From contig NZ_CP107985.1 of the NCBI RefSeq assembly GCF_036108815.1, positions 6,386,058 to 6,450,057 on the forward strand: DNA of 64,000 nucleotides, read 5' to 3'. Below are positions 18,688 through 56,690 of the stretch, piece after piece. The stretch comes from Streptomyces sp. NBC_00353. Its GTDB lineage: Bacteria > Actinomycetota > Actinomycetes > Streptomycetales > Streptomycetaceae. The notes under the pieces were generated by a model. That model was not told the DNA's origin. It made no database searches and saw only the letters and a program-made list of their open reading frames with translations. The first letter of the stretch is position 1; each line of letters starts with the position of its first letter. Made by a program: the position numbers and the translations under genes.

Positions 18688-19585
18688 CGCCGTGACCGGA
18701 GACATTTCCTCGGGTGCGTCCGGCAGCGGCCTTGTCCTCAACCGCCGGACGGGCTCGAAGTACCGCATGGCCCCCCGGTTCGTGTGGGTGTTGCCGCCCG
18801 TTGCCGTTCTTGCTCTTGTCTTCCTCTATCCGCTGGTCCTCGTCGTCCAGCAGTCCGTCAGCCCGGACGAGGGCGGCACCTCGCTCGCCCCGTACGGCGA
18901 CGTCTTCGCCTCCGCGTCATTCCGCTCGGCGCTGACCACCACCGTCTGGCTCGCCGTCGGCTCGACCGCCGGCTGTCTGGTGCTCGGCCTCGTCCTCGCC
19001 CTGGTGATCGCGTTCGTACCGTTCCCCGGCGGCAGGGCGGTCGCCAGGTTCATCGACGTCTTCCTCTCCTTCCCGTCCTTCCTGATCACCCTCGCCCTGC
19101 TGTTCATCTACGGCACCGTGGGCATGGCCAACGGCGTCTGGAGGGATGCCACCGGAGCGGCGGACGGGCCCTTCCACTTCCTCACCACCCCGTGGGGCGT
19201 CCTCCTCGCGGAGATCACGTACTTCACCCCGTTCGTGATGCGGCCACTGCTCGCCGCGTTCTCGCAGCTCGACACCGCACAGCTGGAGGTCGCCTCCTCC
19301 CTGGGCGCGAAGCCGGCCCGGATCGTGCGGCAGGTGATCCTCCCCGAGGCGCTGCCGGCGCTCGCCGCGGGCGGCTCCCTCGTCCTCGTGATGTGCCTCA
19401 ACGAGTTCGGGATCGTGCTGTTCACCGGGGCCAAAGGGGTCACGACCCTGCCGATGCTCGTCTACGGCAAGGCGATCCTGGAGTCCGACTACCCGGCCGC
19501 CTGTGCCGTCGCCGTCGTCAACATCGCGATCTCCGTGGGTCTCTACAGCCTGTATCGGATGGTGAGCCGCCGTGTTGGTGCATAG
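18680..19585 (+). CDS. ABC transporter permease
   Basis: Six transmembrane segments and the EAA-like loop of binding-protein-dependent permeases. The start is ambiguous between the GTG at 18680 (overlaps the ATPase stop) and the ATG at 18767. The intervening 80 nt contain the dispersed repeat motif, which favours 18767. Confidence 0.75.
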   Translation: MPSAVTGDISSGASGSGLVLNRRTGSKYRMAPRFVWVLPPVAVLALVFLYPLVLVVQQSVSPDEGGTSLAPYGDVFASASFRSALTTTVWLAVGSTAGCLVLGLVLALVIAFVPFPGGRAVARFIDVFLSFPSFLITLALLFIYGTVGMANGVWRDATGAADGPFHFLTTPWGVLLAEITYFTPFVMRPLLAAFSQLDTAQLEVASSLGAKPARIVRQVILPEALPALAAGGSLVLVMCLNEFGIVLFTGAKGVTTLPMLVYGKAILESDYPAACAVAVVNIAISVGLYSLYRMVSRRVGA

Positions 19586-20369
19586 CCGTACCGGGAAGTG
19601 GGCCACCTGGACCGTCTTCTTCCTGCTCTTCGTCCCACTGTTCGCACTGCCCCTGCTGGTGATCGTCGCCGCGTCGTTCACCACCAACTGGTCCGGTGCC
19701 TTCCCCTCGGGCCCGACCACCGAGCACTACCGGGCCGCCACCAGTGGCGACTCCCTCCAGGCCCTCACCACCAGCCTGATCACCGCCGTCGGCGCCAGCC
19801 TGCTCGCCCTCACCATCGGCTCCTGGGCCGCGCTCGCCGCCGCCACGCTGCGGCGGCGGGGCAAGAGGTTCCTGGACGGGCTGTTCATGCTGCCGGTCGC
19901 CGTACCGTCCGTCGTCGTCGGCCTCGCCGTGCTCGTCGCGTTCAGCAGGCCGCCGATGCTGCTCAACGGCACGCGCTGGATCGTGATCCTGGCGCACACC
20001 ATTCTTGTCACGGCGTTCGCCTACCAGTCGGTCTCGGCTGCGACAGTGCGTCTCGACCCGATGTACGAGCAGGCGGCAGCCAGCCTCGGCGCCCGCCCCT
20101 CCTACGTCCTGTGGCGGATCAAGCTGCCGCTCCTGCTGCCCTCCCTCACGGCCGCCGCGGGGCTCTGCTTCGCCCTGTCCATGGGTGAGCTGAGCGCCAC
20201 GATGATGCTCTACCCGCCCGACTGGACACCGCTCCCGGTGCAGATCTTCGCGGCCACCGACCGTGGCTCGCTCTTCACCGGCGCCGCCGTGGCCGTGGTC
20301 CTCATGGGCACGACGCTGCTGGTCCTGCTCGCGGTCTCCCGCATCCGCACCAAAGCCTCGTACCGCTGA
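19572..20369 (+). CDS. ABC transporter permease
   Basis: Six transmembrane segments. GTG start overlaps the upstream gene. Confidence 0.8.
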   Translation: MLVHSRTGKWATWTVFFLLFVPLFALPLLVIVAASFTTNWSGAFPSGPTTEHYRAATSGDSLQALTTSLITAVGASLLALTIGSWAALAAATLRRRGKRFLDGLFMLPVAVPSVVVGLAVLVAFSRPPMLLNGTRWIVILAHTILVTAFAYQSVSAATVRLDPMYEQAAASLGARPSYVLWRIKLPLLLPSLTAAAGLCFALSMGELSATMMLYPPDWTPLPVQIFAATDRGSLFTGAAVAVVLMGTTLLVLLAVSRIRTKASYR

Positions 20370-20408
20370 CACCCCTTACCGAACCAACCTCCAGGAGATG
20401 CGACACCC

Positions 20409-21470
20409 ATGCGCAAGAGCCACCTCAAGCCGCTGGCCGCCGTCACCGGCGCGCTCGCCCTCGCCGCCACCCTCTCCGCCTGCGGCGGTTCCTCCGCCGC
20501 CTCCGACGAGAAGATCGTCACCGTCTACAGCGCGGACGGGCTCAAGGGCGAGAACGGCGACGGCTGGTACGACAAGGTCTTCAAGGACTTCGAGAAGAAG
20601 ACCGGCATCAAGGTCGAGTACGTGGAGGGCGGCTCCGGCGAGATGGTGCAGCGCGCCGCCCGCGAGAAGTCCAACACCCAGGCCGATGTACTGGTCACAC
20701 TCCCGCCGTTCATCCAGCAGGCCGACTCCAAAGGCCTCCTGACGGCGTACGAACCGGCCGGCTCCGACCAGGTCGACGGCGCCGACAAGTCGTCCGACTC
20801 CAAGTGGACCTCGGTCGTCAACAACTACTTCGGCTTCGTCTACAACAAGAAGGAACTGAAGACCGCGCCCACCACCTGGGACGAGCTCACCGACGCGAAG
20901 TACAAGGAGAAGATCCAGTACTCCACCCCCGGAGTCGCCGGTGACGGCACGGCCGTACTCATCAAGGCCATGCACGACTTCGGCGGCAAGGAGCCGGCGA
21001 TGGAGTACCTGAAGAAGCTTCAGGCCAACAACGTCGGCCCGTCCGCCTCCACCGGCAAGCTCGCCCCCAAGGTCGACAAGGGCGAACTGCTCGTCGCCAA
21101 CGGCGACGTCCAGATGAACTACGCCCAGTCCAAGGACATGCCGAACCTCGGCATCTGGTTCCCGGCGAAGTCCGGCTCCAAGCCCACCACGTTCGCCCTG
21201 CCCTACGCGGCCGGACTGGTCAGCAAGGCCCCGCACAGCGCCAACGGCAAGAAGCTGCTCGACTTCATGCTCTCCGAGCAGGCCCAGAAGGACGTCAGCG
21301 AGGTCGGCGGCGGCTTCTCCGCCCGCAAGGACATCGAGGCCACCGACGCGAACGCCATCGAGCTCAGCAAGCTGATGGACGGGGTGGAGGTCTTCGAGCC
21401 GGACTGGTCGGACATAGACGCCAACCTGGACGGATATGTGGACGCCTGGAAGACGGCCACCGGAAGCTGA
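20409..21470 (+). CDS. ABC transporter substrate-binding lipoprotein (putative 2-aminoethylphosphonate-binding)
   Basis: Lipobox LSAC. Iron/thiamine/AEP-type SBP fold. Last gene of the cluster. Confidence 0.8.
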   Translation: MRKSHLKPLAAVTGALALAATLSACGGSSAASDEKIVTVYSADGLKGENGDGWYDKVFKDFEKKTGIKVEYVEGGSGEMVQRAAREKSNTQADVLVTLPPFIQQADSKGLLTAYEPAGSDQVDGADKSSDSKWTSVVNNYFGFVYNKKELKTAPTTWDELTDAKYKEKIQYSTPGVAGDGTAVLIKAMHDFGGKEPAMEYLKKLQANNVGPSASTGKLAPKVDKGELLVANGDVQMNYAQSKDMPNLGIWFPAKSGSKPTTFALPYAAGLVSKAPHSANGKKLLDFMLSEQAQKDVSEVGGGFSARKDIEATDANAIELSKLMDGVEVFEPDWSDIDANLDGYVDAWKTATGS

Positions 21471-21583
21471 CCGCGGCGACCGGCACGGGCCCACCGGCCC
21501 GGCACCCTAAAATCGGGGATGTCGGCGCTGCACAACGCGGTGCCGCCGGCGTCCCCGCACACGGCGTACGGCAGGAGTCCCAC

Positions 21584-22372
21584 ATGGCAGAGCGCAAGCC
21601 GATCACATCCTGGCTCACCGACATGGACGGAGTCCTGATCCACGAAGGCACGCCGATCCCCGGGGCGGACGCCTTCATAAAGCGGCTGCGGGAGTCCGGG
21701 CTGCCGTTCCTGGTGCTCACCAACAACTCGATCTACACGGCACGCGACCTGCACGCCCGCTTGGCTCGCATGGGCCTGGACGTGCCGGTGGAGAACATCT
21801 GGACCTCCGCCCTGGCCACCGCGAAGTTCCTCGACGACCAGCGGCCCGGCGGCACCGCGTACGTCATCGGCGAGGCAGGACTCACCACCGCGCTGCACGA
21901 CATTGGGTACGTCCTCACCGATCATGACCCGGATTACGTCGTCCTCGGCGAGACTCGAACGTATAGCTTCGAGTCGCTCACCAAGGCGATCCGCCTGATC
22001 AACGGCGGGGCCCGCTTCATCTGCACCAACCCGGACGAGACCGGCCCCTCCGCCGAGGGCCCGCTGCCCGCCACCGGCGCCGTCGCCGCACTGATCACCA
22101 AGGCCACCGGCAAGGACCCGTACTTCGCGGGCAAGCCCAACCCGCTCATGATGCGCACCGGGCTGAACGCGATCGGTGCCCACTCCGAGTCCAGCGCCAT
22201 GATCGGCGACCGGATGGACACCGATGTGCTCGCGGGCCTGGAGGCGGGCATGCACACCTTCCTGGTGCTGACCGGTCTGACGACCCCCGCCGACATCGAC
22301 CGCTACCCCTTCCGGCCGTCCACGGTCGTCGACTCCATCGCCGACCTGGTCGGCCTCATCGACGTCGGCTGA
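21584..22372 (+). CDS. HAD-IIA family hydrolase (NagD-like)
   Basis: Motif I DMDGVL. HAD-IIA cap and core motifs present. Confidence 0.8.
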   Translation: MAERKPITSWLTDMDGVLIHEGTPIPGADAFIKRLRESGLPFLVLTNNSIYTARDLHARLARMGLDVPVENIWTSALATAKFLDDQRPGGTAYVIGEAGLTTALHDIGYVLTDHDPDYVVLGETRTYSFESLTKAIRLINGGARFICTNPDETGPSAEGPLPATGAVAALITKATGKDPYFAGKPNPLMMRTGLNAIGAHSESSAMIGDRMDTDVLAGLEAGMHTFLVLTGLTTPADIDRYPFRPSTVVDSIADLVGLIDVG

Positions 22373-23086: not shown

Positions 23087-23091
23087 ACGAG

Positions 23092-25157: not shown

Positions 25158-25208
25158 TACCCGGGGGCGTCCGGTGGCCGGTTCTCCGTCCTCGAACTCC
25201 CCCTCTGC

Positions 25209-29047: not shown

Positions 29048-29470
29048 GGGTCATCCCCCTGCACGCACTGGTCACTGCGTGATCGGTCGGTCGTCTCGTC
29101 CGCGGCGAATCCCCCTCGACCGCCGCGGGCGCATCGCTGGTGGGCCACCTTCCCCTGAGGAGTGGGATGGCGCCCTGCCGGTTGCAGGATGCCCCTCGGC
29201 ATCCGTCCATGAGCGGGACCCCCACCCCGCGGTACGGCAACCGGAACTTCCCCCGTGCTGTCCCAACTGCGCGTGTCATCGGCTCGGTTGAAGCCGATGA
29301 CCCCATGACAGGTTGTATGACCCAGGTCGTTATCGCAAGGGTGAAACGGGCGGTTAACCGGCCATATGTGCGATTTGGGTGACTCTTGCGGAGGGGCGCA
29401 CGGAGGCGTAAGGGCTCCGCGTACACGAACAAGACCCCCTCACGCTCGGTGAGGGGGTCTTGACTCTGCG

Positions 29471-29544
29471 TGCGCCGCCAGGGACTCGAACCCCGGACCC
29501 GCTGATTAAGAGTCAGCTGCTCTAACCAACTGAGCTAGCGGCGC
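29471..29544 (-). tRNA. tRNA-Lys (anticodon CUU)
   Basis: 74-nt cloverleaf read directly: acceptor GCGCCGC, D-arm GCTCAGTTGGTTAGAGC, anticodon loop CUCUUAA, T-arm GGGGTTCGAGTCCCC. CCA is not encoded. A hairpin at 29431-29461 lies downstream. Confidence 0.9.
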
Positions 29545-35528: not shown

Positions 35529-35612
35529 AGGGCATGGGAGGGGCCCCTCGACGGGCCCGAAACTCGAACCCGTCCGGCGAACGAGGACGGACAAGGTGAC
35601 GTGGACGGCCCC

Positions 35613-37124: not shown

Positions 37125-37257
37125 GCCAGGAAATATACGAGCGTTTAAAACAAGTGTCTAGTACGGACGTGTAACACGTTTGTATGGAACGACGGGCAGC
37201 AAAAAACGCAGTGGGCGGTCTACGTACAAGTACGTAGACCGCCCACTGCGTTGTCTG

Positions 37258-37331
37258 TGCGCCGCCAGGGACTCGAACCCCGGACCCGCTGATTAAGAGT
37301 CAGCTGCTCTAACCAACTGAGCTAGCGGCGC
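37258..37331 (-). tRNA. tRNA-Lys (anticodon CUU), copy 2 identical to copy 1
   Basis: Same 74 nt. A perfect 21-bp-stem terminator hairpin at 37207-37251 is followed by a T-run on the minus strand. Confidence 0.9.
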
Positions 37332-44227: not shown

Positions 44228-45301
44228 GTGGACAACAACCGAGGCGACGACATTCGCGGCCGGGCCGAGGGAACGGCCCCCGTGCCGCTCTCGGTGCTCG
44301 ACCTGGTGAGCGTGGGCCAGGGCCGCACCGCGACCCAGGCGCTCCGCACCAGCGTGGACATCGCGCAACTGGCCGAACGCCGCGGCTTCCACCGCCTCTG
44401 GGTCGCCGAACACCACTCCATGCCCGGCGTCGCCTCGTCGTCCCCGGCCGTGATCCTCGCCCATCTTGCCGCGCACACCGAGCGGCTCCGGCTCGGCTCC
44501 GGCGGGGTGATGCTGCCCAACCACGCTCCGCTCGTCATCGCCGAACAGTTCGGCACCCTGGAGGCCATGGCTCCCGGCCGTATCGACCTGGGCCTGGGCC
44601 GCGCGCCCGGCACGGACGGCGCGACCGCCGCCGCCCTGCGCCGCACCGACCGGCTGAACGAGGGCGCCGACGACTTCCCGCAGCAGCTTGCCGAGCTGAC
44701 CCGGTTCCTGGACGACGACTTCCCCGACGGTCACCCGTACGCCCGCATCCACGCGGTCCCGGGCCCGGTACAGGGCCCCACCGGCCGCCCGCCGATCTGG
44801 CTGCTCGGCTCCTCCGGCTTCAGTGCGAGGCTGGCCGGCGTCCTCGGCCTGCCGTTCGCCTTCGCCCACCACTTCTCGGCGCAGAACACGATCCCGGCGC
44901 TCGACCTGTACCGGGAGTCGTTCAAGCCTTCCGCGGTGCTCGACGCCCCGTACGCCCTGATCGGCGTCTCGGCGCTGGCCGCCGACGAGGAGCGCGAGGC
45001 CCGGCGCCAGGTGCTGACCGGTGCGCTGTCGATGGTCCGCCTGCGCACCGGCCGGCCCGGTCTGATCCCGACCCCCGAGGAGGCGGAGGCGTACGCCTTC
45101 ACCCCGATGGAGCGCGAGTTCGTCGACGGCTGGCTCGGCAACGTCATCCACGGAACGGCGGACGAGGTCCGCTCCGGGCTGGACGACCTGGCCAAGCGGA
45201 CCGGTGCGGACGAGTTGATGATCACTGCCAATGCGCATGGGGGTGGGGCGCGGGTTCGGAGCTATGAGCTGATCGCGGATGCGTATGGGCTGCGTGGCTG
45301 A
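44228..45301 (+). CDS. LLM-class (luciferase-like) flavin-dependent oxidoreductase
   Basis: Motifs LWVAEHH and [37 protein letters not shown] start follows GGAGAGG. Confidence 0.8.
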
Positions 45302-45462
45302 GGGGTGTGCGGGTTCGTCGGCGTGACCGTTTCTGTCCTCAAGCGCCGGACGGGCTGATGGATGCCCTCAATCGCCGGGCGGGCTTGATTTTGCCGGGCG
45401 GGTTGGGTGTGCCGGGGCGGGCTCGGGCGCGCCGGGCGGGATCGGGTCGGTGGCAGGCCGCT

Positions 45463-47409
45463 TCAGCGTTGCAGGGGTCTGGTGCCGATCAGTTCCGCGA
45501 TGCGTTCCGGGGCCACCGCTCGTGAGTAGAGCCAGCCCTGGCCGGTGTCGCAGCCGATCCGGCGCAGTCGCTCCGCCTGGCCCGCGGTCTCCACGCACTC
45601 CGCGGTGACCGTCAGCCCCAGCCGGTGCGCCAGCTGCACCATCGCCTCGACGATCGTCTCGTCGGCGGGGCTGGGGTGCGCGCCGTCGTCGTAACGGAAG
45701 CCGCGTACGAACGAGCCGTCCAGCTTCAGTACGGACACCGGCAGCCGACTCAGATAGGCGAGGTTCGAGTAGCCGGTCCCGAAGTCGTCGATGGCGATCC
45801 GGACGCCCATGTCGCTGAGCGCCTGGAGCGCCTCCAGCGGGCGGCCCGCCGAGCCCATCACCGCGGACTCGGTCAGTTCGAGCTGCAGCAGTCCGGGTGC
45901 CAGGCCGGTCTCGGCGAGGATCTCCGCGACATCCGTCACCAGGTCCGAGTCCCAGACCTGCCGCACGGCGACATTGACGCTGATGAACAGCGGCGGCTCG
46001 GTCGGATGGTCCAGCTGCCAGCGCCGGGCCTGGCGGCACGCCGACTGCAGCACCCACCGGCCGAGCTGGACGATCGAGCCGTCCTCCTCGGCGATCGCGA
46101 CGAACCGATTCGGCGAGAGCATGCCGAACTGCGGGTGGTTCCAGCGGACCAGGGCCTCCACCCCGCGCACGACTCCGTCGGCCATCCCGACCAGCGGCTG
46201 GTACTCGATGGTGAACTCGCCGCGCTCGACAGCCGGCCGCAGCGTGGACGAGAGAGCCTGCCGGGTCATCCGGTGAGCGTTGCGCTCGGGGTCGAAGAGC
46301 GTCCAACGGGCCTTCCCGTCCGCCTTCGCCCAGTACAGCGTGGTGTCGGCGGCCTGCATGAGACCGGTCGCCGAGGTGCCGGCCACGGCCCGCTCCACCA
46401 CGCCGATCGACGCCGATACGGCCAGCCGCTGCCCGGCCAGGTCGAACGGCTTCTGCAGGGCGGTGAGCACCGCGCGGGCGAGATCGGTGAGCTGCTGCGC
46501 ACCCGCGGACTCCTCGACGAGGATGGCGAACTCGTCGCCGCCGAGGCGCGCCACGAGTGAGGCGCCGGTGCGGTGCTGGTTCTCCTGTTCGGCGCAGTCG
46601 GTGAGTCTGGCGGCGACGGCGGCGAGCAGCCGGTCGCCGATCCGGTGGCCCATCGTGTCGTTGACGGCCTTGAACCCGTCGAGGTCGAGGTAGCAGAGCC
46701 CGATCCGGCCGTGCCGCCGGGGACCGTCCTGGTCCGGCGGAGTCACCAGGGCGGCCGAGAGGCGTTCGAAGAACAGGGTCCGGTTGGGCAGCCGGGTCAC
46801 CGGGTCGTGCATCTGGAGGTGGCGCAGCCGCTTCTGCAGCTCGCGCCGGTCGCTGATGTCGGCGACGGAGAGCAGTACGGGACAGGAACCGGGGGAGGAA
46901 CCGGGTGGCGTCTGCGGCATCGGCGCGACGGTGATCTCGGCCCACAGCGAGCGCCCGTCGGGGTGCTTGAGCCTGCGCGTGCAGCGGAACCGGGAGCGCC
47001 GGCCGCGCAGCACCTCGCGGTACGCATGCCAGGTGCGGCCGTCCGACGAGACGTCGAGCAGATCGGACGCGGACTGCGTCGTCAGCGTCACGGGGTCGGC
47101 GCCGAGCAGCGCGCCGAGGGCGTCGTTGGCGGTGAGGATCAGGCCTTCGTGGTCGACGACGGCCATCGGAAGGGTGGCGGCCCGGAAGACGGCCCGGTAG
47201 TCGGCGCCGCGGCCGACCGGCCCGGACCCACCGATGCCGTCAGCGGTCCCGCCTGCGAGGCCGTCTCCGGCCCTGTCCGCGGTCCCGTCCGCGGCACCGT
47301 TTCCGGCCCGCGCCGACGCGGGATCCGTATGACGCTCCGTGACCGGCGGTCGCGCGGTAGGGGGCGCTGCGCCTGCCGGGGGCCTCGGCCCTTCGGAGGT
47401 TTCGCTCAC
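45463..47409 (-). CDS. PAS-GGDEF-EAL cyclic-di-GMP turnover protein
   Basis: GGDEF active-site motif present as GGDEF in RLGGDEFAI. EAL region with the motifs ELTE and DDFGTGYS. Start chosen at the GTG at 47409 after GGGAG. An alternative ATG lies at 47520. Confidence 0.8.
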   Translation of the reverse strand: MSETSEGPRPPAGAAPPTARPPVTERHTDPASARAGNGAADGTADRAGDGLAGGTADGIGGSGPVGRGADYRAVFRAATLPMAVVDHEGLILTANDALGALLGADPVTLTTQSASDLLDVSSDGRTWHAYREVLRGRRSRFRCTRRLKHPDGRSLWAEITVAPMPQTPPGSSPGSCPVLLSVADISDRRELQKRLRHLQMHDPVTRLPNRTLFFERLSAALVTPPDQDGPRRHGRIGLCYLDLDGFKAVNDTMGHRIGDRLLAAVAARLTDCAEQENQHRTGASLVARLGGDEFAILVEESAGAQQLTDLARAVLTALQKPFDLAGQRLAVSASIGVVERAVAGTSATGLMQAADTTLYWAKADGKARWTLFDPERNAHRMTRQALSSTLRPAVERGEFTIEYQPLVGMADGVVRGVEALVRWNHPQFGMLSPNRFVAIAEEDGSIVQLGRWVLQSACRQARRWQLDHPTEPPLFISVNVAVRQVWDSDLVTDVAEILAETGLAPGLLQLELTESAVMGSAGRPLEALQALSDMGVRIAIDDFGTGYSNLAYLSRLPVSVLKLDGSFVRGFRYDDGAHPSPADETIVEAMVQLAHRLGLTVTAECVETAGQAERLRRIGCDTGQGWLYSRAVAPERIAELIGTRPLQR

Positions 47410-47817
47410 CGCTCGCTCCCGCCGTGCAGTTCTGTCCTGAACAGATGTGGTCGGACTGGGCCCGCCGCGTGGAGTGCCGTTGTCGGGGCGGAAACCACGC
47501 AGGAAAGCGTGGTGAAGCATAGAGGTTGTCGTCCGGCCCGTTCCAGCTCGCCGCCCGTTCCGGGCCCGCGGATCGCCCCGCATGGGCCATTCGCGCGCCG
47601 ATCCGGTTTGCCCAGGACTGATTGTTTCTGCGCGGCTCTGTTCTCTCCAGTCGATCTTGGGTCCGTCTCGCGCAGTTGCGGTGATCGATTATGACTGTCC
47701 GTGAAAAGGCACCGGGTGGCGGCCTGTTTACCCGAGTGGGGTAGCACAACAGGGCGTATACCACCAAACCGGCACAGTCTGGATGGCGAGTCCCGCATCC
47801 CGCACCCGGAGGTCGAT

Positions 47818-49059
47818 GTGCCGCGTAAGCGCAGACTCGCGGGAGTGGAGAGGCCGAGTCCGCGTGGCGTACTGGCAGGGCTGATCGCGCTCCTGGCGCT
47901 CGCCGCCATCTCTCTTGTCGCCGGTCCGGCGGTGGCCGTCACCGGGGCGGCCGGCCCGTGCGCCCTGCCCCGGACCGAGGTGCACCACTCGCTGGGAGTG
48001 GGTGACTGGAACGACGCCTACCCGCGCCCGGACCACACGCTCGACGCGGTCATGATCTTCCTCTCCTTCACGGACGCCCGCCCCGTCACCACCCCCGCCG
48101 AGCTCGCTGCCGACTACTTCCCCGCCACCACCCAGTTCTTCCAGCGCGCCTCGTACGGGAAGTTCACCCTGCGCCCGCACCCGCAGCGGCATTGGATCCG
48201 GATGCCCAGGAGCTCCACCGCGTACGGGATAAAGCGCGACTGGGACGACGGCCGGCGCAGCGAGTATCTGCGTGACGCGATTGCCGTAGCCGACGACCAG
48301 GTCGACTTCTCGAAGTACGACATCGTCTATCTGGTCGCCGACCCGGACGCCCCCGGCGTCGACTCCGATGCCACCAAGGTCGTCAACTTCGACCGGCCGC
48401 TGCACGCCGACGGCACGGACATCAGACGTGTCGTCACCGTTTTCGAACAGCACCCGCCGGACCGGAACGTGCTGGCCCACGAGACCGGGCACGTCTTCGA
48501 CCTGCCGGACCTCTATCACCGGCCGACGGACGGCAAGGGTGACTGGGACACGTATGTCGGCGACTGGGACGTGATGGGCAGCCAGTTCGGCCTCGCGCCG
48601 GATCTGTTCGGCTGGCAGAAGTGGAAGCTGGGCTGGCTGGACCGCGGGCAGGTGGCGTGCATCCAGCGCAAGCAGGACATCACCCTGGAGTCGATGGCCG
48701 CCGTCCCGGCACGCGGTGCGTCCCTCGGGACGCGGCTCGCGGTGATCAGGACCGGGGTGGGCGGCGTGGTGGCGATGGAGGCCCGCAGCGCCACCGGCAA
48801 CGACCGGACGACCTGCAGCGAAGGGGTGCTGATCTACCGGGTCCGCAACGGGACGTCGTCCGGCGGCGGGCCCATCCAGGTCATCGACACCCACCCCCAC
48901 ACCGACGCCTGCTGGGACCTGTCGGTCTACCCGCCGCTCGCGGACGCCCCGCTGCGGGTCGGTGAGACGTACACCATTCCCGGTGAGCACACCAGGGTCG
49001 AGGTCGCGGACCGGACGCCGTCGGGGGCCTGGACGGTCAGGATCACCACCGGCACGTGA
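47818..49059 (+). CDS. M6-family (immune-inhibitor-A-like) zinc metalloprotease, secreted
   Basis: Motif HETGHVFDLPDLY (HExxH + LPDLY). Signal peptide present. GTG start follows GGAGG. Confidence 0.7.
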   Translation: MPRKRRLAGVERPSPRGVLAGLIALLALAAISLVAGPAVAVTGAAGPCALPRTEVHHSLGVGDWNDAYPRPDHTLDAVMIFLSFTDARPVTTPAELAADYFPATTQFFQRASYGKFTLRPHPQRHWIRMPRSSTAYGIKRDWDDGRRSEYLRDAIAVADDQVDFSKYDIVYLVADPDAPGVDSDATKVVNFDRPLHADGTDIRRVVTVFEQHPPDRNVLAHETGHVFDLPDLYHRPTDGKGDWDTYVGDWDVMGSQFGLAPDLFGWQKWKLGWLDRGQVACIQRKQDITLESMAAVPARGASLGTRLAVIRTGVGGVVAMEARSATGNDRTTCSEGVLIYRVRNGTSSGGGPIQVIDTHPHTDACWDLSVYPPLADAPLRVGETYTIPGEHTRVEVADRTPSGAWTVRITTGT

Positions 49060-49150
49060 GCAGGATCACCGCCGGCGCGTGAGCAACCGGTCCCGCGGTG
49101 AAACGAAAACGAAGAAGCCCCCCGCTTGTGCGAGGGGCTTCTTCCGTCTG

Positions 49151-49224
49151 TGCGCCGCCAGGGACTCGAACCCCGGACCCGCTGATTAAGAGTCAGCTGC
49201 TCTAACCAACTGAGCTAGCGGCGC
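49151..49224 (-). tRNA. tRNA-Lys (anticodon CUU), copy 3
   Basis: Identical 74 nt. Downstream hairpin at 49111-49144 followed by a T-rich tract on the minus strand. Confidence 0.9.
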
Positions 49225-50111
49225 CTGCTGACGTCGTAGACCTTAGCACCCTGATCGGCGGGAGGAAAAATCGAAATCCGGGCCGTCGACGCGGGCGCCG
49301 AGCGGGTCACGCGTACACAGGCCCAGAGCAGTACGTCGGGGCCCGGCAGCCATGGGCTACGGGTGTCGGGAGCGACCACCCATCGGGGCCCGGGCGAGGT
49401 GGAACCGCAGGCCAGAGGCGGGACGGTCACCGCGTCGCCGGTGCCGTGACAGAGCAGCGGCGGGAACCTGTTCTCCTGGTCGTCCGGCCCTCCGGGCGCC
49501 TGCGGGTCGTGCTCCGTCACCGGCTCGGGGCGGCTGCCCCACTCCTCCCAGTCGAGCAGCGACGGCAGCCGCTGGGCGGTCCCGGGCGCGGCGAACAGCA
49601 GCATCCGCCCGCGGTGTGAGGCGACCGGCCCCGAGCCGGGCCCGTCGGCCCACAGGTGCTCCAGCATGCGCCGCCCGAAGAGCGCGGGCACATTGACCAC
49701 ATCGAACGCGGAGCCGCACGGCAGCACACCGGGCGAGCCGGGGTGGGCCTGCCACTGGGCGAGCGTGGAGCGCGGATAGGCCGTGGCGCCGGCGAGCCAG
49801 GCGGCGCCCGCAGCGGTGACCTGCGCGGTCTGATGCCCGGCTTGATTCCCGGGCTGGGGTCCGGCCTGGGTTCCGGTCCGGTCCCCGGTCTGGTCCCGCA
49901 GGGCGGCGAAGATGTCGACGCTGTGCTGGGACCCGGTGCCGGGGTACAGGGTCGATTGGTCTGGCAGCCATGCAGTCATGTGCACTGGTCTACCGGGAGT
50001 GACGGTCCGGATTCCAAGAGTTGCCGGAAATCGGGACAGGGTGGTGGGGGGAGGAGTATCTTGCCCGCGGGCATATGCCAGCGGGCTGTACCCGGAGTCA
50101 GCTCCGGGCAA
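49215..50111 (-). CDS. hypothetical protein, 298 aa, possible degenerate primase-polymerase-like
   Basis: Long ORF with coding-like bias. The 3' end overlaps the tRNA by 10 nt. There is weak resemblance to Prim-Pol cores (VLPCGSAFDVVNVP ... SHRGRMLLFAAPG). Start unsure (TTG 50111 or ATG near 49979). Confidence 0.45.
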   Translation of the reverse strand: MPGADSGYSPLAYARGQDTPPPTTLSRFPATLGIRTVTPGRPVHMTAWLPDQSTLYPGTGSQHSVDIFAALRDQTGDRTGTQAGPQPGNQAGHQTAQVTAAGAAWLAGATAYPRSTLAQWQAHPGSPGVLPCGSAFDVVNVPALFGRRMLEHLWADGPGSGPVASHRGRMLLFAAPGTAQRLPSLLDWEEWGSRPEPVTEHDPQAPGGPDDQENRFPPLLCHGTGDAVTVPPLACGSTSPGPRWVVAPDTRSPWLPGPDVLLWACVRVTRSAPASTARISIFPPADQGAKVYDVSRRR

Positions 50112-50129
50112 GGGCCGGACGCTCCGGCG

Positions 50130-50471
50130 TCACGGTCTGGCGCCGCCCAGCAGGCTCCGGCCGAATTCGACCATCTTCTTCGCGTAGTCCTCGGTCCACT
50201 CCGCGCGCTCCGCGATGTCCGCAGTGGTCAGCCGGTCGAACCGGCGCGGGTCGGCCAGCTGGGCAGCGGCGATCGCCTGGAACTCGACCGCGCGATCGGT
50301 CGCGGCGCGGAATGCCAGGGTCAGCTCGGTGGCGCGGTCCAGCATCTCCTTCGGGTCGTCCATCGACTCCAGGTCGAAGAAGTGCTCGGGATCGGCGACC
50401 GCCGCCGACGGCTCGAAGAGCAGGGGCGCGGGGCGCAGCCGCTGCCGCTCGTTCCGCTCGGGTTGTGCCAT
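50130..50471 (-). CDS. small acidic hypothetical protein, 113 aa
   Basis: ATG preceded by a strong GGAGGA. The remainder of the 180-aa ORF is upstream junk. Confidence 0.55.
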   Translation of the reverse strand: MAQPERNERQRLRPAPLLFEPSAAVADPEHFFDLESMDDPKEMLDRATELTLAFRAATDRAVEFQAIAAAQLADPRRFDRLTTADIAERAEWTEDYAKKMVEFGRSLLGGARP

Positions 50472-50702
50472 GTGGTGTTCCTCCTTCGGTGGGCCCGACG
50501 GCCACCCTCTATTGTCCAACCCGCCGCAAGTGCGCTTCGGGGCGGTGCACGGGGCCAGTGCGCGGGAGCGCGCACCAACACACCTCCGGGCGCGACACGC
50601 GCCCCCGGTGGCCCATCGCATATGGCCCGACGACGTTACGGACGCTCGCACCGACGGTGCTGCGGCGCCCACCGCACCGGCGACGCTACGGCGCCCACCG
50701 CG

Positions 50703-52037
50703 TCACGGCGCCCACCGCACCCGGTGTTCCGCGAGATGTGCCAGGACCGCGTGGTTCGCCTCCCAGCCGTCGGGGAATTTCACCGTGACACCCAGCTGGA
50801 CCGGTTCCGTCGACGGATGTTCGTCCAGCAGGTCGGAGACGCCCTCGCGGCAGACCACGATGCAGGCATGGCGGTGCCGCGAGGCCAGGACGCACAGCCG
50901 GCCCGTCTCCAGGTGGAACGCCGTGGCGTCCGGGCGGCCGGACAGCGGGTGCAGGACCACCGTCACATCGAATTCGCGGCCCTGGAGCCGGTTCGCCGTG
51001 TCCACCGCCACACCCGTCACACCGAGCTCCGCGAGCGCCGCCCGCACCGCCGCGGCCTGGTCCCGGTGGGCGGTGCCGACCGCGACCCGGTCCGCCGTCA
51101 CCGCGGCGGGCTCGGGGGAGCGCTCGCTCGTCGCCGCGCCGCCCCGGTCCAGCAGACGGCGCACCACCAGGGCCACCGCCCGTACCGCCTCCGGATCCGT
51201 GCGCGGGGTGTGCCGGGCCGGAAGTTCGAGCAGACCCCAGCCGGACTCCGCGGCCTCGTCCAGCACCCGGTCCGGGGCGGAGCCGTCCGACGCGACACCG
51301 AACGACAGCCGCCGGTCGCCGTGGTCCGTGCCGCTGCGGAACGGGGTGTACGGGTAGAACGCGTCCGAGACCAGCGGCGCCGCCGACGCGGGCAGCCGCC
51401 ATGACACCGGCAGCCGGTGCTGCGGCAACTCCGGGTTGTGCGCCAGCAGTGTGGAGACCGCACTCGCCGACGGGTCGTACGACAACCCCGCCCACTGGTC
51501 CGCGCCGACGATCGAGAACGGGTCCAGCTGGCCGGGATCGCCGACGAAAAGCGCCCGTTCGAAGAGCCCGGCGACGGCCAGCAGCGCGTCCGAGCGCATC
51601 TGGTACGCCTCGTCGACGATCGCGTGCCCCCACGGCTCGACGTTCTTCACATGCGCCCACTTGGCGGCCGTCGAGATGACGACGTCAAGTCCGGCGAGGT
51701 CCGCCGCCTTTGCCGATTTCCGTACGTTGGCCAGGCCGTCCAGCACCTTGTCGTACGGGTCCGAGTCATTGCTGTGCAGCCTTCCGACCGGCAGCCCCGG
51801 GTCCTTCTCGGCCAGCCGCACCACCAAGTCGTCGACCTGGGCGTTGGTCTGTGCGACCACCATCAACGGGCGCCCGGCAGCGGCCAGTTCGAGCGCGGCG
51901 CGCACCACCAGCGTCGACTTGCCCGCGCCCGGCGGGGAGTCCACCACGATGCCGCGTGCCGTGCCGTGCAGCGTGTCGTCCAGGATCGCGGTGGTTGCCC
52001 GTCCCGCCGCCGCGCCCGGGTCGAATACGGCTGTCAC
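50703..52037 (-). CDS. SF1B helicase of the Upf1/Dna2 type (AAA_11/AAA_12)
   Basis: Walker A SPPGAGKST, Walker B VDEAYQ, and a C-terminal TANRLQGREFDVTVV motif. GTG start after GGAGGAC. GTGA overlap with the upstream gene. Confidence 0.8.
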   Translation of the reverse strand: MTAVFDPGAAAGRATTAILDDTLHGTARGIVVDSPPGAGKSTLVVRAALELAAAGRPLMVVAQTNAQVDDLVVRLAEKDPGLPVGRLHSNDSDPYDKVLDGLANVRKSAKAADLAGLDVVISTAAKWAHVKNVEPWGHAIVDEAYQMRSDALLAVAGLFERALFVGDPGQLDPFSIVGADQWAGLSYDPSASAVSTLLAHNPELPQHRLPVSWRLPASAAPLVSDAFYPYTPFRSGTDHGDRRLSFGVASDGSAPDRVLDEAAESGWGLLELPARHTPRTDPEAVRAVALVVRRLLDRGGAATSERSPEPAAVTADRVAVGTAHRDQAAAVRAALAELGVTGVAVDTANRLQGREFDVTVVLHPLSGRPDATAFHLETGRLCVLASRHRHACIVVCREGVSDLLDEHPSTEPVQLGVTVKFPDGWEANHAVLAHLAEHRVRWAP

Positions 52038-53641
52038 AGAGGGTCCTCCGCGGTCACGGGGTCGGGGTTCTCGGCGGCGGCGCCCGGCGGACCGCCGTGC
52101 GTCCAGGGGGTGTCCTCCGGGTCCGGCAGCTTCGGGCCGCCGCGCTGGTCGTGCTCGAACAGCGTCCACGCGATCCGGTCGCCCGGCTCCGGCAGCGAAC
52201 CCGGGGCCGGCTCCTTGCTCCGGCCCATCCGGTCGGTGATCCGCAGCACGAGCAGGACCTCCTCCGGTCCGGCGGCGTCCTCGGAGGCATACGCCACGAA
52301 CTCCGCGGTCTGCGGCCTGCCGTCCAGCGAGCGGTACACCTTCGTCCGCTCACCGAGATGCGGGCGCTCGTCCGTCCGGACCGTGACCAGCGGGCGCGGC
52401 GAGGGCCGCTTCGACTCGCTGTACGCCATCACCACCTCCGTCACCTCCCCGACAAACGCCTCGCCGGCCAGCCGCCGCCCGGCCAGCACCAGCGGATCGT
52501 CCAGCGCCTCCTGGGCCTCCAGCTGCGCCTGCGCCGTCTCCCGGGACGCCAGCTTCTGGGCTGCCGTCACCGCGTCGTCGCGGCGCGGCTGCGGCGGCTC
52601 CCCGGACCGCACCCGGTCCCGGTGGCCGGTGAACGACCAGCGGTCCCGGGTCCAGCGGTCCTCGGACCTGGCCCCGGGCGGCAGCTGCGCCATCAGGTCC
52701 AGCCCCCGCCACACGGCATCCCAGGTCGGCCGCAGCACCCCGGCGAGCAGCGATCCGATCTCCCGTTCGGCCGCTGTCAGTTCGGCCAGCCGGGCGTCGG
52801 CCGCGAGCCCGTCCTCGGCCGCCGCGAGTGCCGTGCGCGCCCGGTCGTACTTCTCGATCGCCGGTGCGAGCAGCCGGTTGTCGAATGCCGGGTCCGTGGC
52901 CGGACCGGCCGGCGGGCACACCAGCTGGCCGCCGCCGTCCCGCTCCAGCTCGGCCCGGAGCGCGGCCTCGGCCCCGGACTCGCCCGCCGGAGGGTCGATC
53001 CAGGCCAGCAGAGCCCCGAGATGCTGGTCCTCCAGCGTGGACTGCCCGGTCGCCCAGTGCCGGTTCAGCAGATCGGTCGCGGCGAGGAGCAGCGAGGAGC
53101 CCGGCACCCGGGCCCGCTCCCCGTAGTGCGTCAGCCAGCGGCCGAGCAGCGGGACACGGGCCGGGGCAGGGTACGGGGTGTCCGGATCGTCCTCGGCGGT
53201 ACGCCGGAACCGCATGGAACGGCCCAGCAGCCGCACGAAGTCGATACCCGCCCGGCTCGGCACGATCAACTGCGGTGCGTCCGTGCACAGTTCGACCTTG
53301 ACCTTGACCTTCTTGCCGGTCTCGGGATCGGTCTCGTTGCGCTCGGCCTGCTCGACCACGTCCGCGTACGACTCGATGTGCGGCAGGACCGCCTCGGCCA
53401 GGTCGGCGAGGAACGCGAACCGCAGGTCACGGTCGCGCGGCTGGGCGACAGTCAACAGCCGCGGCGCGTCCCGGTCGGTTCCGACGAGCGCGCCGAGCGG
53501 GGCGCCCGCCTCACCGGCGGTGGTCAGCGGTACGAGGACGAGCGGCCGGCCGCTGAGATGGCGGTGCAGAACGGTGGCCATCGGCTGTGCCCGCCCGCTC
53601 TCCACGGCCTCGAGCCGGGCCAGGGTGCTGATCAGTGACAT
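52034..53641 (-). CDS. uncharacterised 535-aa protein encoded between the nuclease and helicase genes
   Basis: Start at the ATG at 53641 after GGAGGG. The upstream 208 codons of the 743-aa ORF are G/R-rich junk. No motif recognised. Overlaps both neighbouring genes. Confidence 0.6.
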   Translation of the reverse strand: MSLISTLARLEAVESGRAQPMATVLHRHLSGRPLVLVPLTTAGEAGAPLGALVGTDRDAPRLLTVAQPRDRDLRFAFLADLAEAVLPHIESYADVVEQAERNETDPETGKKVKVKVELCTDAPQLIVPSRAGIDFVRLLGRSMRFRRTAEDDPDTPYPAPARVPLLGRWLTHYGERARVPGSSLLLAATDLLNRHWATGQSTLEDQHLGALLAWIDPPAGESGAEAALRAELERDGGGQLVCPPAGPATDPAFDNRLLAPAIEKYDRARTALAAAEDGLAADARLAELTAAEREIGSLLAGVLRPTWDAVWRGLDLMAQLPPGARSEDRWTRDRWSFTGHRDRVRSGEPPQPRRDDAVTAAQKLASRETAQAQLEAQEALDDPLVLAGRRLAGEAFVGEVTEVVMAYSESKRPSPRPLVTVRTDERPHLGERTKVYRSLDGRPQTAEFVAYASEDAAGPEEVLLVLRITDRMGRSKEPAPGSLPEPGDRIAWTLFEHDQRGGPKLPDPEDTPWTHGGPPGAAAENPDPVTAEDPL

Positions 53642-54786
53642 GGCGTTCCGCCCTCCGGAGCTGCCTGACCGGTCGCTCTTTCCAGCGCCTCCGCGCGCAG
53701 GGCCGCCGCGCGGCGCAGGGCCGCGACCGTCGGATCCGCCGGGTCGCCCTCCTTGCCCGCAGCCGCGGCCAGTACGTCGGTGACCGTCGTCAGACCCCCG
53801 AGCTCGCCCCGGACGCTCCGGCCCAGCGCCTGCACCGCACCGGCCGAGCGTGCCTTGGCCCGGCAGTGGAAGGCCAGTTCGCAGGCGGCCAGGCACTCCG
53901 GTGCGTATGCCGCCGTGACCGATTCGACCGCGGCCGTCAGCTCCTGCGGCGAACACTCCGGGTCGAAGGTGGTGCCCTCGGGCAGGGCGGCCGCGATCTC
54001 CTCGATCCGGGTCAGCCGGGTCAGCTGACGGCGGGTGACCGCGCGCTGCTTGCGTACGTCCACCACCGACGCCGTCGGCAGGTTGGAGAAGTCCTTCGGG
54101 CAGACCAGCAGCACCCGGTGGCCGACCTCCGCGCCCGGAGTGACCGCTGCGATCCGCTCCAGCGCCAGGACGTACACCGCGGACTGCCGGGCCGCCGCGC
54201 CGACCTTCGCCGCATCCGCGGAACTGTCGATCATGGGGAACGACTTGATCTCCACAACCGTCCACCGGCCGTCGGGGTGCACGACCACCGCGTCCGGCTC
54301 CAGATAGGCGGGCGAGCCCGCCACCTCCAGGGCCAGCATCGGATGGTCGAGCAGCGCCCAGCCGCCCGCGCCCGTCGCCTCCCGCAGCGCCAGCGCCGTA
54401 CGGGCCGCGCGTCCCTCGGGACCGGCTGCCGTCAGATCCGGTACCAGGACCTTGCGCGGCGCCTCGCTGCCGCCGCCGAGCCGCTCGTACAGCAGCCGCA
54501 TCAGCTCCGTACCGCCGTCGGCCTTGACCTTCGCCTCGAAGGCGTTGCCCCGCATGAACGCGAACTGCGACTGGCCGAACGCGGCAGGGGAGCCGAGTGC
54601 CGTCGCCAGCGCGGCCTTGTCCACCCCGGCGCCGTCCAGCAGGGCGCGCCGCTTGCAGCCGGGGTTCGCGGCGAGGGCGGCCAGCGCGCGGGCATCGAGC
54701 GGATGCGGGGCGACGGCCGGACCGCGCAGCTCAGCGAGCCGCTGCCGGAGCGCCGTCGTCTGCTGCGTCGCCCGATGCTGCGTCAT
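53632..54786 (-). CDS. Cas4/RecB-family PD-(D/E)xK nuclease with Fe-S cysteine cluster
   Basis: Motifs EPD...VVEIKS (PD/ExK) and QSAVY (QxxxY). One N-terminal Cys plus C-terminal CLAACELAFHC. Start is uncertain between the ATG at 54786 and the TTG at 54861. It overlaps the PAP2 gene tail. Confidence 0.7.
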   Translation of the reverse strand: MTQHRATQQTTALRQRLAELRGPAVAPHPLDARALAALAANPGCKRRALLDGAGVDKAALATALGSPAAFGQSQFAFMRGNAFEAKVKADGGTELMRLLYERLGGGSEAPRKVLVPDLTAAGPEGRAARTALALREATGAGGWALLDHPMLALEVAGSPAYLEPDAVVVHPDGRWTVVEIKSFPMIDSSADAAKVGAAARQSAVYVLALERIAAVTPGAEVGHRVLLVCPKDFSNLPTASVVDVRKQRAVTRRQLTRLTRIEEIAAALPEGTTFDPECSPQELTAAVESVTAAYAPECLAACELAFHCRAKARSAGAVQALGRSVRGELGGLTTVTDVLAAAAGKEGDPADPTVAALRRAAALRAEALERATGQAAPEGGTPCH

Positions 54787-55678
54787 CGGTGGAGTCTGCG
54801 GAGGAGGTCCGCTGGCCGGGGATTCGCTCACCCGCGGAAGTCTTGCATCCGGCACTGACAATCGGGGACTTCGTGGCCGATGCGGCTGGTGCGAACCGGG
54901 CCTGTACCGCGACCTTGACCCGGTCGACGAGCCGCATGACCGGCCAGGTCAGCAGCGCTCCGACGGCCATCACGGCAGCGCCCGCGACCGCGTCGAGGAA
55001 GTAGTGGTTGGCCGTGCCCATCACGACGATCGTGGTGACCAGCGGGTACATGACGCCCGCGGCGCGTACCAGCGGGTGCCGCGCGTGACGCCAGAGCAGG
55101 ATCCCGCACCACAGCGCCCAGCCGACGTGCAGACTCGGCATCGCGGCGTACTGGTTGGTCATCCAGCCCATCCCGCGCGGCGCGCTCGCCTCGGTGCCCC
55201 ACCAGCCGTACGAGCTGTACTGGGCCATGGTGTCGACGAAGCCGTGCGTGGCGTGCAGCAGCCGCGGCGGGCAGGTCGGCAGCAGCGCGAAGCCGACCAG
55301 GCCGAGCAGTGTGGAGGTCATCAACCAGGTGCGGGCGGTGCGGTACACGGCGGCTCGGCGCCGGTAGATCCAGATCAGGACGGCCGGGGTGACCAGGTAG
55401 TGCAGTGAGGCGTAGGCGAAGTCGGCGGGTATGCCGATGGACGGGTGGGCGGTCATCAGCCGGTTGAGCGGGTGCTCCGCGTTGAGGAAGAGCGTCTTCT
55501 CCAGATGCAGTATCCGCAGCCCGTGGTCCACAGCGGTCGACACATCGCTGCGGACCAGCAGCCGGCCCGCCGAGTAGACCGCGTACACGACCGCGATCAG
55601 CGGCAGCTCGGCCCACCAGCGAGGCCGGTGGCTCGGCGCGGACGCGGTGGCAAGCGGCATTCGGAAGCTCTCCATCAT
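54731..55678 (-). CDS. PAP2-superfamily membrane phosphatase-like protein
   Basis: Multi-transmembrane protein with the PAP2 motifs PSLHVGWA and ANHYFLD. Low-complexity C-terminal tail. Confidence 0.7.
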   Translation of the reverse strand: MMESFRMPLATASAPSHRPRWWAELPLIAVVYAVYSAGRLLVRSDVSTAVDHGLRILHLEKTLFLNAEHPLNRLMTAHPSIGIPADFAYASLHYLVTPAVLIWIYRRRAAVYRTARTWLMTSTLLGLVGFALLPTCPPRLLHATHGFVDTMAQYSSYGWWGTEASAPRGMGWMTNQYAAMPSLHVGWALWCGILLWRHARHPLVRAAGVMYPLVTTIVVMGTANHYFLDAVAGAAVMAVGALLTWPVMRLVDRVKVAVQARFAPAASATKSPIVSAGCKTSAGERIPGQRTSSADSTDDAASGDAADDGAPAAAR

Positions 55679-55908
55679 GTGTTCATGCGACCGAGGGCGG
55701 CCGTTCAACCGTACGGTGCAGATCGGCCGCGATTCCCCCGGGGGTACCCCTGCGGATGCCCCGGTTCGTGCGGAGATTTCTCCGCGGGGAAGGGGACGCG
55801 TGTTCGGCCCCGGAGGTTGCCTGTCGGGCACGTGAGCGATGATGGAAAAAGGCGGATCACCCGTCCCTGTTGTCGTTTTCTCCGAACCAAGATTCAGGGA
55901 GAGCCGTC

Positions 55909-56505
55909 ATGGCACCGCGTATCCTGCTCGCCCGGCACGGCCAGACGGAATGGTCCGTCAAGGGCAATCACACCGGCAGGACGGACATTCCTCTGCTCGA
56001 CGCGGGCCGCGCGGGCGCCAAGCTGCTGGGCGAGCGGCTGCACCGCGGACCGTGGGCGGACCTGCCGGGCCTGGAGGTCCGCACCAGCCCGCTCGTCCGC
56101 GCCAGGGAGACCTGCGACCTGGCGGGCTTCGCGGACCGGGCGCAGCCGTGGGACGCGCTCATGGAGTGGGACTATGGGGCGTACGAGGGCATGACGCCGG
56201 CCGAGATCCAGGCGATCCGGCCGGGCTGGTTCATCTGGCGCGACGGGGTACCGGACGGCGAGACCCTCTACGAGCTGTCCGCCCGTGCGGACGAGATCGT
56301 CGACTGGGCGCGCTCGGCCGAACGCGACGTGCTGGTCTTCGCCCACGGTCACATCCTGCGGGCGCTGGGGGCGCGCTGGCTGGGCGAGGACGTGTCGTTC
56401 GCGTCCCGCATCCGCCTGGACCCGACGTCGCTGTCGGTGCTCGGATGGGCATACGGGGCACCGGCCCTCGAACGCTGGAACGACACGGGCCACCTGGACC
56501 GGTGA
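55909..56505 (+). CDS. histidine phosphatase (phosphoglycerate-mutase-like) family protein
   Basis: Catalytic motif LARHGQTEW and a second His in AHGH. Confidence 0.85.
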
Positions 56506-56690
56506 GGTCCTGCGCCCACCCGGCGGCGTAGGTGTCCTCAATCGCCGGACGGGCTCGAACTGTGGCCAGCGGGTGGGGCGAACCGTGGTCCGAATCTCAG
56601 CCCGCGCGGCCGAATTCGGCCCGCCCGGTGACTGAGGACGGAACCCGTGCGGCGGACCCGGATGTGCGTCGCGTGGGGCGGCACCCCGCG

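Follow-up and report, generated by a model that had tools for sequence, protein, structure and literature searches.

What is the short GC-rich motif that recurs at several gene borders within 64,000 nucleotides of the genome of Streptomyces sp. NBC_00353 (contig NZ_CP107985.1, positions 6,386,058 to 6,450,057 of the forward strand, this whole stretch being termed the window here): a regulatory site, a structure at transcript ends, or a member of a dispersed repeat family? Comparison with related genomes favors the last, and a probability of about 0.72 is assigned to the motif being a Streptomycetaceae repeat family resembling the repetitive extragenic palindromes (REPs) and bacterial interspersed mosaic elements (BIMEs) of other bacteria. 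The match to that type is drawn from the size of the unit, its compensated stem-loop, its bias toward gene 3′ ends, its inverted dimers and heterodimers, and its mosaics, intragenic copies and decay. The window copies are ordinary, partly decayed family members, one of them likely intragenic and in frame and one extended into a strain-variable slippage array.

Copies in the window

A 22-mer, GTCCTCAANCGCCGGACGGGCT, is present without mismatch at 18734-18755, 45335-45356 and 56534-56555, always on the + strand, and 100 dinucleotide-preserving shuffles of the window yielded 0 matches to it even at 3 mismatches. With 3 mismatches allowed, copies starting at 45364 (+) and 35567 (-) are added, and a 21-nt version of the motif adds 56619-56639 (-), giving six copies at four sites (A, B, C and D) in 64 kb. 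The initial annotation had reported three near-identical copies; these stand, though the second had been placed about 9 bp too far to the right (45344-45366 as against 45335-45356), and the three were not the full set, since B2 (45364-45385), C′ (56619-56639) and D (35567-35588) had been missed or not recognized. The copies are as follows.

18728..18762 (core 18734-18755), + strand: copy A, exact 22-mer, R1 score 40.5 bits, E 4e-8, an intact singleton at the junction of the ATP-binding cassette (ABC) ATPase and permease genes
35560..35594 (core 35567-35588, GTCCTCGTTCGCCGGACGGGTT), - strand: copy D, 3 mismatches, R1 14.2 bits, E 0.11, a decayed singleton
45329..45363 (core 45335-45356), + strand: copy B1, exact 22-mer, R1 39.9 bits
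45364..45392 (core 45364-45385), + strand: copy B2, GCCCTCAATCGCCGGGCGGGCT, 2 mismatches, partial R1 match, E 0.013, 29 bp after B1
45393..45446, + strand: array of truncated GCCGGGCGGGCTTGATTTT-like units (3′ half of the unit plus tail) with a 19-bp period
56528..56562 (core 56534-56555), + strand: copy C, exact 22-mer, R1 38.6 bits, left arm of a tail-to-tail pair
56611..56645 (core 56619-56639, GTCCTCAGTCACCGGGCGGGC), - strand: copy C′, 3 mismatches, R1 15.6 bits, E 0.05, the decayed inverted partner of C

R1 in this list is a covariance model built from copies in other genomes. It ranks the same six window sites on top, the intact three at 38.6-40.5 bits and the decayed three at E 0.013-0.11, with one weak match in a coding region, probably noise, ranking among the decayed copies. 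The flanks of the window copies are mutually unrelated. By itself the 10-mer GCCGGRCGGG, found 10 times against an expectation of 4.4, exceeds chance just about 2-fold in a window of about 70% G+C, and so the significance rests on the full unit.

A repeat unit with a compensated stem-loop

The unit of about 30 nt can be written (C)CTC-GTCC-TCAANCGCC-GGAC-GGG-CTGA(A), which gives a 7-bp stem, a 9-nt loop and a 3′ tail. Among 218 copies at <=3 mismatches in 912 kb around core matches, the conserved part runs from about -4 to +24 relative to the 21-nt core. The inner part of the stem pairs GTCC with GGAC over the 9-nt loop, and the three outer pairs use GGG, whose 5′ partners are mainly C or T, which makes these pairs C-G or T.G for the most part. 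Hardly any variation is seen in the loop TCAANCGCC or the CTGA tail across about 100 species in three genera.

The stem was scanned with the loop alone as anchor and the stem itself left unconstrained. Three versions emerged, GTCC/GGAC (n=171), CTCC/GGAG (n=11, at 10 loci) and CGCC/GGCG (n=6, at 4 loci), and all are fully complementary; complementarity of the stem is kept in every version that was amplified. At the fourth pair from the loop a left C and a right G occur jointly 19 times and alone 10 and 5 times, respectively (Fisher p = 2e-16), and at the third pair there is again joint change of both sides (Fisher p = 2e-8). A stem count from another alignment, A2, was set aside for the four inner pairs, as A2 had been preselected for inner-stem complementarity. 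The repeat matches no Rfam family: at the gathering score the window returns three tRNAs only, and relaxed scans give just sub-threshold matches to eukaryotic miRNA hairpins.

Distribution among genomes

With one genome per species, at least 120 stretches contain the core without mismatch, and those listed all belong to Streptomyces, Embleya or Actinacidiphila, about 100 species altogether. The density of copies depends on lineage, with 6 copies at 4 sites in the 64-kb window versus 0 in 64 kb of syntenic DNA from three species. A phage feature, considered as a candidate, is ruled out by there being 1 match in 2.9 million viral contigs. A BLAST search of plasmids with a consensus doublet returned 2 records of megaplasmid or chromid size, the query being too short for this to be informative.

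A full-text literature search with the 12-mers of the motif, with REP, REPIN, RAYT and MITE (miniature inverted-repeat transposable element) combined with Streptomyces, and with Term-seq found no published description of the repeat. (RAYT stands for REP-associated tyrosine transposase, and REPIN for a REP doublet forming a hairpin.) The sole sequence match in that literature is a primer lying downstream of adpA (SCO2792) of S. coelicolor (PMC10771470). The primer contains GAACGCCGGACGGGCTGA, which indicates that a copy of the repeat directly follows this developmental regulator gene.

Position relative to genes

Genes were called with our own script based on G+C content at third codon positions, and those relevant in the window were checked against Pfam. 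Among 152 copies with two called neighbors, 77 are in convergent, 67 in tandem and 8 in divergent spacers, while intergenic bases are distributed 17%, 54% and 29%, respectively, so that the repeat is about 3-fold enriched between convergent genes and about 5-fold depleted from divergent, promoter-bearing spacers. Called genes are overlapped by only 31 of 224 copies, though 81% of the DNA is called gene, and the distance to the nearest stop codon is typically about 50-90 nt. Orientation with respect to transcription is unbiased, singletons in tandem spacers being 13 sense and 12 antisense. What was found, then, is neither the frequency expected by chance nor indifference to gene position, as the 0 matches in shuffled sequence and the 3′-end bias attest, and the proposal of the initial annotation that the motif is a REP-like element is borne out by its dispersal in about 100 species, that same bias, and its inverted doublets and arrays.

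At three loci (L046, L072 and L106, at position +4 from the start of the motif) the TCA in GTCCTCAA appears to provide the adjacent - strand gene with its stop codon (TGA), and by our own gene calls these genes seemingly end within the repeat.

Singletons, doublets and mosaics

Of 224 copies, 86 are solitary and 138 have a neighbor within 400 bp. Inverted neighbors at that range are tail-to-tail in 31 cases versus head-to-head in 4, most often starting 28-34 bp apart. Tail-to-tail doublets whose cores are 7-13 nt apart are palindromes, perfect or nearly so, and their DNA folds at -36 to -37 kcal/mol (z about -11); 11 doublets are GTCC homodimers and six are GTCC+CTCC heterodimers. More elaborate arrangements occur at L009, L003 and L015, each having 5-7 copies in a direct run followed by an inverted run, with composite periods of about 66 bp.

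Doublets in other genomes are often bracketed by other recurrent palindromic modules, as at nine loci (L092, L014, L079, L032, L019, L037, L067, L107 and L108), one such module being ATCGGCGCTCCGCGCCTC with its complement and another CCCC[AG][AG]ACCCCG with CGGGGTCTGGGG; these mosaics seem to bring several repeat families together. In the window itself copy D is adjoined by a 23-nt palindromic companion module, AAGGGCATGGGAGGGGCCCCTCG, at 35528-35550. This module is rare, with 3 occurrences in the DNA examined, and it recurs beside copies of the repeat at other sites in two relatives (L127 at 12017 and L124 at 21546).

Site B: an array that changes length

Site B lies between a luciferase-like monooxygenase gene (+) and a convergent PAS-GGDEF-EAL gene (-), as identified with Pfam, and consists of B1, the degenerate tandem copy B2 and then three half units of 19 bp. 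The periodic tract described in the initial annotation at 45374-45440 is recovered by Tandem Repeats Finder with a period of 19 bp, 3.5 copies and 80% matches, and it begins inside B2. GCCGGGCGGG is exact at 45374, 45393 and 45431, with GCCGGGGCGGG at 45411.

The window shares with Streptomyces sp. DT203 its PAS-GGDEF-EAL protein, at 100% identity over 567 aa, and an identical ABC ATPase. In comparison with the 161-bp site B spacer of the window, that of DT203 has 123 bp, two 19-bp units fewer, and that of strain 061-3 has 177 bp, with more units. The array ranges from about 1 to 5 units among near-identical strains (spacers of 123, 127, 161 and 177 bp), and the flanking proteins of the strains differing in this way are identical or 97-99% identical. 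Such a difference in length between close strains suggests that the array is a product of slippage and not a binding array kept by conservation. No second half-unit array of this type turned up in 1.4 Mb of related DNA.

History at orthologous sites

Site C is between a histidine phosphatase gene (+) and a convergent tetratricopeptide repeat (TPR) gene (-). Its pair of copies is 85 bp apart, and when the spacer is folded to its minimum energy (-107.5 kcal/mol, z = -2.5), 56528-56562 pairs with 56611-56645. The imperfect inverted repeat that the initial annotation had seen around copy C is also present, as CGCCCACCCGG at 56513-56523 and CGGGTGGGGCG at 56570-56580. Site D is in the spacer between a gene for an AMP-binding enzyme (+) and a convergent gene for a major facilitator superfamily (MFS) transporter (-); there is an orthologous copy in L124, and a pair in the same spacer of L128. 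Comparison of the syntenic region in ten relatives (L123-L129 and L197-L199) gave the following occupancy.

Site B: occupied in L123-L127; empty in L128 (16-bp spacer), in L129 (unrelated GC hairpin) and in the distant species L197-L199
Site C: pair in L123-L125; shortened by a deletion of about 80 bp in L126; reduced to a remnant in L127; no copy in L128 (3-bp spacer) or L197-L199

Copy B2 is conserved in L123-L125, and the L124 orthologue of C′ has 1 mismatch, nearer to the consensus than the 3 of the window copy. The syntenic 21-kb regions of the three distant species contain zero copies. Compared with their flanks, sites B and C have no clear excess conservation in the relatives. The window copies arrived in an ancestor of the clade and are inherited, mutating and being deleted at roughly the rate of their surroundings.

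Copy A and the start of the permease

The initial annotation put all three of its copies at 3′ untranslated positions. B and C do lie between convergent genes; copy A is at the junction of the ATPase and permease genes of an operon, 47 nt past the ATPase stop codon, and is probably in the permease reading frame. In more than 20 orthologous operons from metagenomes the start codon of the permease overlaps the ATPase stop codon, as [AG]TGNCTAG; none of them has a start codon at the place of ATG 18767 of the window, and none has the repeat. The same overlap is seen in the window (GTGCCTAG), with GGAGG 5 nt before GTG 18680. Orthologous permeases have a variable tail of 17-33 aa ahead of a conserved ...P.WVW.LPP segment, and distant homologues have about 10-25 residues before the part that aligns at query residue ~30.

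Judged from such sequence comparison, the permease probably starts at GTG 18680, overlapping the ATPase stop codon. The overlap in the orthologues and in the window, together with the N-terminal tails of the homologues, implies that copy A is most likely translated in frame, contributing codons about 19-27 of the N-terminal tail with the reading ...LVLNRRTGSK.... In the DT203 assembly (L195 4109-4196) the permease is called from a downstream ATG, giving 272 aa instead of 301, likely a miscall caused by the repeat copy. REPs inside genes are known from other bacteria (PMC3733652).

How the family may spread, and what else it could be

For a REP/BIME-like family, the following course of events can be envisaged. 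A process recognizing the hairpin and its loop would spread or renew the family, candidates being gene conversion or the action on single-stranded DNA of a structure-specific protein, transposase-like or otherwise. Copies would survive downstream of genes, where insertion is expected to be least harmful. Once established they would drift, lose partners and alter in length by replication slippage, the 19-bp half-unit array of site B being a possible outcome of the latter. Doublets such as that at site C may have gained a secondary role as hairpins forming a barrier where convergent transcripts end. No site-specific function would be expected of single units, A and D for example, nor probably of the site B array.

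Several observations weigh against this proposal. No mobilizing enzyme was found, in that no gene family is recurrent beside the copies at 120 motif-selected loci; a tblastn search with two Y1 queries gave nothing at E < 0.28 in 1.37 Mb, a weak test confined to that DNA. No insertion younger than the clade was seen in the 20 kb compared, nor a fresh one with clean boundaries among close strains, so that mobility is deduced from patchy occupancy. Isolated single units fold no better than shuffles, whether as RNA or as DNA (z about 0). The stem variants are probably amplified subfamilies, not many independent compensations. The estimated density, about 14 further clusters per Mb, was obtained at loci selected for the motif, and the positional counts depend on our gene caller. 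Finally, REP sequences normally differ between species, and a loop constant across three genera, being unusual for REPs, could point to a host protein-binding function.

Individual copies drift, yet three genera share one and the same loop and tail, which requires that something recognize this sequence in the folded strand, be it a mobilizing enzyme or a host protein. If the latter, the unit might be the recognition site of a conserved DNA-binding or nucleoid-organizing protein of the Streptomycetaceae, with binding keeping the family in place. There is precedent in that IHF and gyrase bind BIMEs in E. coli; the near-invariance of TCAANCGCC and CTGA in about 100 species though single copies decay, the need for something to hold the consensus constant, and the occurrence of regularly spaced arrays are all in keeping with it. 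However, orthologous copies have been lost or have decayed with no replacement, the syntenic 21-kb regions of three species have none, stem covariation implies a folded single strand and not a duplex site, promoter regions are avoided, and no candidate protein was found, so that this is rather improbable. The avoidance of divergent, promoter-bearing spacers and the decay of orthologous copies likewise make the regulator binding site that had been suggested unlikely. For site B in particular, a functional G-quadruplex or protein-binding array between the monooxygenase and GGDEF-EAL genes had been suggested, given the regular 19-bp spacing, and there is indeed a canonical quadruplex motif (four runs of at least 3 G, loops of 1-7 nt) at 45396-45427. 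It is, however, one of 17 in the 64-kb window and the spacer fold is not unusual (z = -0.16); moreover, the number of units varies among strains whose flanking proteins are identical or nearly so, the site is empty in five other species and there is no similar array in the 1.4 Mb, all of which leaves this suggestion very little probability. Less still is left to the idea that GC-rich sequences resemble each other by chance or that one local duplication left remnants: base composition and the merely 2-fold excess of GCCGGRCGGG could be cited for it, but the shuffles gave no match to the full unit, the flanks of the copies are unrelated and the unit is in at least 120 stretches from about 100 species.

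Selection at the RNA level is a somewhat better contender than a host-protein site, though still an unlikely one: unit or doublet would be a 3′-end structure of transcripts that terminates transcription, blocks exonucleases or is a target of RNase III, and so sets the stability of the upstream mRNA. The 3-fold enrichment between convergent genes at about 50-90 nt from the nearest stop codon fits with this, as do the very stable hairpins of the doublets and the T.G positions of the stem, which become G.U pairs in RNA of the motif strand. In S. clavuligerus many transcript 3′ ends are at stable hairpins that have no U tract (PMC8269248). Set against it are the even split of singletons between sense and antisense to the upstream gene, single units that fold like shuffled sequence, the lack of an Rfam family, sites that are empty in relatives having the same gene pairs, and copy A being within an operon and probably within a reading frame. 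A scan of 45000-57000, covering sites B and C, found no T-tract terminator at the repeats. Random orientation and the lack of stability of units on their own speak against singletons acting primarily as RNA, and the small RNA or terminator module suggested in the initial annotation is not supported for single units, strong hairpins arising only from inverted doublets. That doublets act secondarily as barrier or terminator is plausible.

Returning to the REP/BIME-like family, a bolder version of it can be framed. The family may be half of an actinobacterial system comparable to REPIN-RAYT, in which a conserved, vertically inherited Streptomycetaceae protein would recognize the hairpin with TCAANCGCC and CTGA, as single-stranded DNA or as RNA, and would have held the consensus constant across three genera while copies turn over. 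For the partner one may think of a transposase that has been domesticated, of the HUH type or another, or of a nucleic-acid-binding protein specific for structure. We regard this version as doubtful; if it were true, a partner system of the REPIN-RAYT kind would be new for Actinobacteria.

Other repeats in the window

Three identical tRNA-Lys(CTT) genes are within 20 kb on the - strand (29470-29544, 37257-37331 and 49150-49224), each in an 87-nt block that is 97-100% identical and includes a few flanking bases. Directly downstream of the third is a canonical hairpin and T-tract terminator (49144-49111, -). Imperfect direct repeats of 81-106 nt with 60-82% identity at 31150-31900, within the open reading frame 30996-33071 (+), suggest a repetitive protein region. 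At 50648-50721, in the spacer upstream of a helicase-like gene (50703-52037), there is a short tandem repeat of about 17-26 bp in 3 copies (GCACCG.CG.CGCT.CGGCGCCCACCGC).

Significance

Having a REP-like family catalogued aids annotation of Streptomyces genomes, which are mined intensively; copies of the repeat produce spurious open reading frames and wrong start calls, as is likely for the DT203 permease. Copies also flag spacers that are prone to slippage and deletion, and could serve as markers for strain typing, the site B array being an example. As the doublets put strong hairpins where convergent transcripts meet, they are candidates for some of the Streptomyces 3′ ends that Term-seq finds at positions lacking a U tract. 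To our knowledge, REPs with no known transposase are unexplained in general, and the genetics of Streptomyces could address what recognizes a constant loop and tail carried on compensated stems.

Comparison with known systems

Like a MITE, the repeat is non-coding, dispersed and, in its doublet form, has inverted ends. It differs in having no fixed internal sequence or length, the spacers ranging from 7 to more than 250 nt and being unrelated, and in the frequent occurrence of single arms and direct arrays. A target-site duplication was not identified, no empty and filled pair clean enough to reveal one having been found, and no parent insertion sequence with these ends was seen. An intrinsic terminator was also considered and rejected, since the scan covering sites B and C showed no GC hairpin with a T tract at the repeats and single units have z about 0.

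The CGTC-tagged REPs (Di Nocera et al. 2013, PMC3733652) are similarly GC-rich, have no dedicated transposase known, form homo- and heterodimers and are placed between convergent or unidirectional ORFs with occasional intragenic copies; CCTC, the 5′ flank of the Streptomycetaceae unit, is listed among the variants of their tag. They have 8-9 bp in the stem, where A/T fills the first two positions, 4-5 nt in the loop and CCA as tail (PMC3733652), whereas the unit described here has a 7-bp stem, a 9-nt loop and a CTGA tail. Within this unit, CGTC itself occurs only in the stem of the opposite strand, and the CTCC/GGAG variant lacks it. Dimers of the CGTC-tagged REPs are mostly head-to-head (PMC3733652), those of the Streptomycetaceae repeat mostly tail-to-tail. 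Membership of the GTAG- or CGTC-tagged super-families was rejected, as there is no GTAG, and loop, stem composition and tail do not fit CGTC-1 to CGTC-4.

With the REPIN-RAYT systems of Pseudomonas and Enterobacteria (Bertels and Rainey 2011, PMC3116915) the family shares inverted doublets whose short spacer allows one long hairpin, singletons that resemble decayed doublets (compare site C′) and vertical inheritance. It differs in its actinobacterial host, in lacking GTAG and in that a RAYT gene flanked by repeats was not found, either at the 120 motif-selected loci or in the weak tblastn search of 1.37 Mb. The literature search revealed no REP or REPIN paper that names Streptomyces for this element.

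The REPs and BIMEs of E. coli and other enterobacteria differ from the Streptomycetaceae unit in sequence, which is unrelated, and the latter has no GTAG tag and no RAYT was seen; its stem is short, at 7 bp, with T.G pairs, its conserved loop is long, at 9 nt, and its consensus is common to genera and not species-specific. The likeness is in organization. Both are short GC-rich imperfect palindromes, extragenic and located between convergent or co-directional genes; both occur as singles, as inverted pairs and as mosaic clusters alternating with other short motifs; and the heterodimers of two stem variants are reminiscent of the Y and Z types of REP. In terms of the generic description of REPs (Higgins/Gilson; Di Nocera 2013), the unit is within the range of about 20-40 bp, forms an imperfect-palindrome stem-loop, has an extragenic position between convergent or co-directional genes and is frequently in inverted dimers, and, as for BIMEs, there are clusters in which the REPs alternate with other conserved short motifs. 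The repeat family, for which no description was found in the literature searched, is best read as belonging to the known REP/BIME kind.

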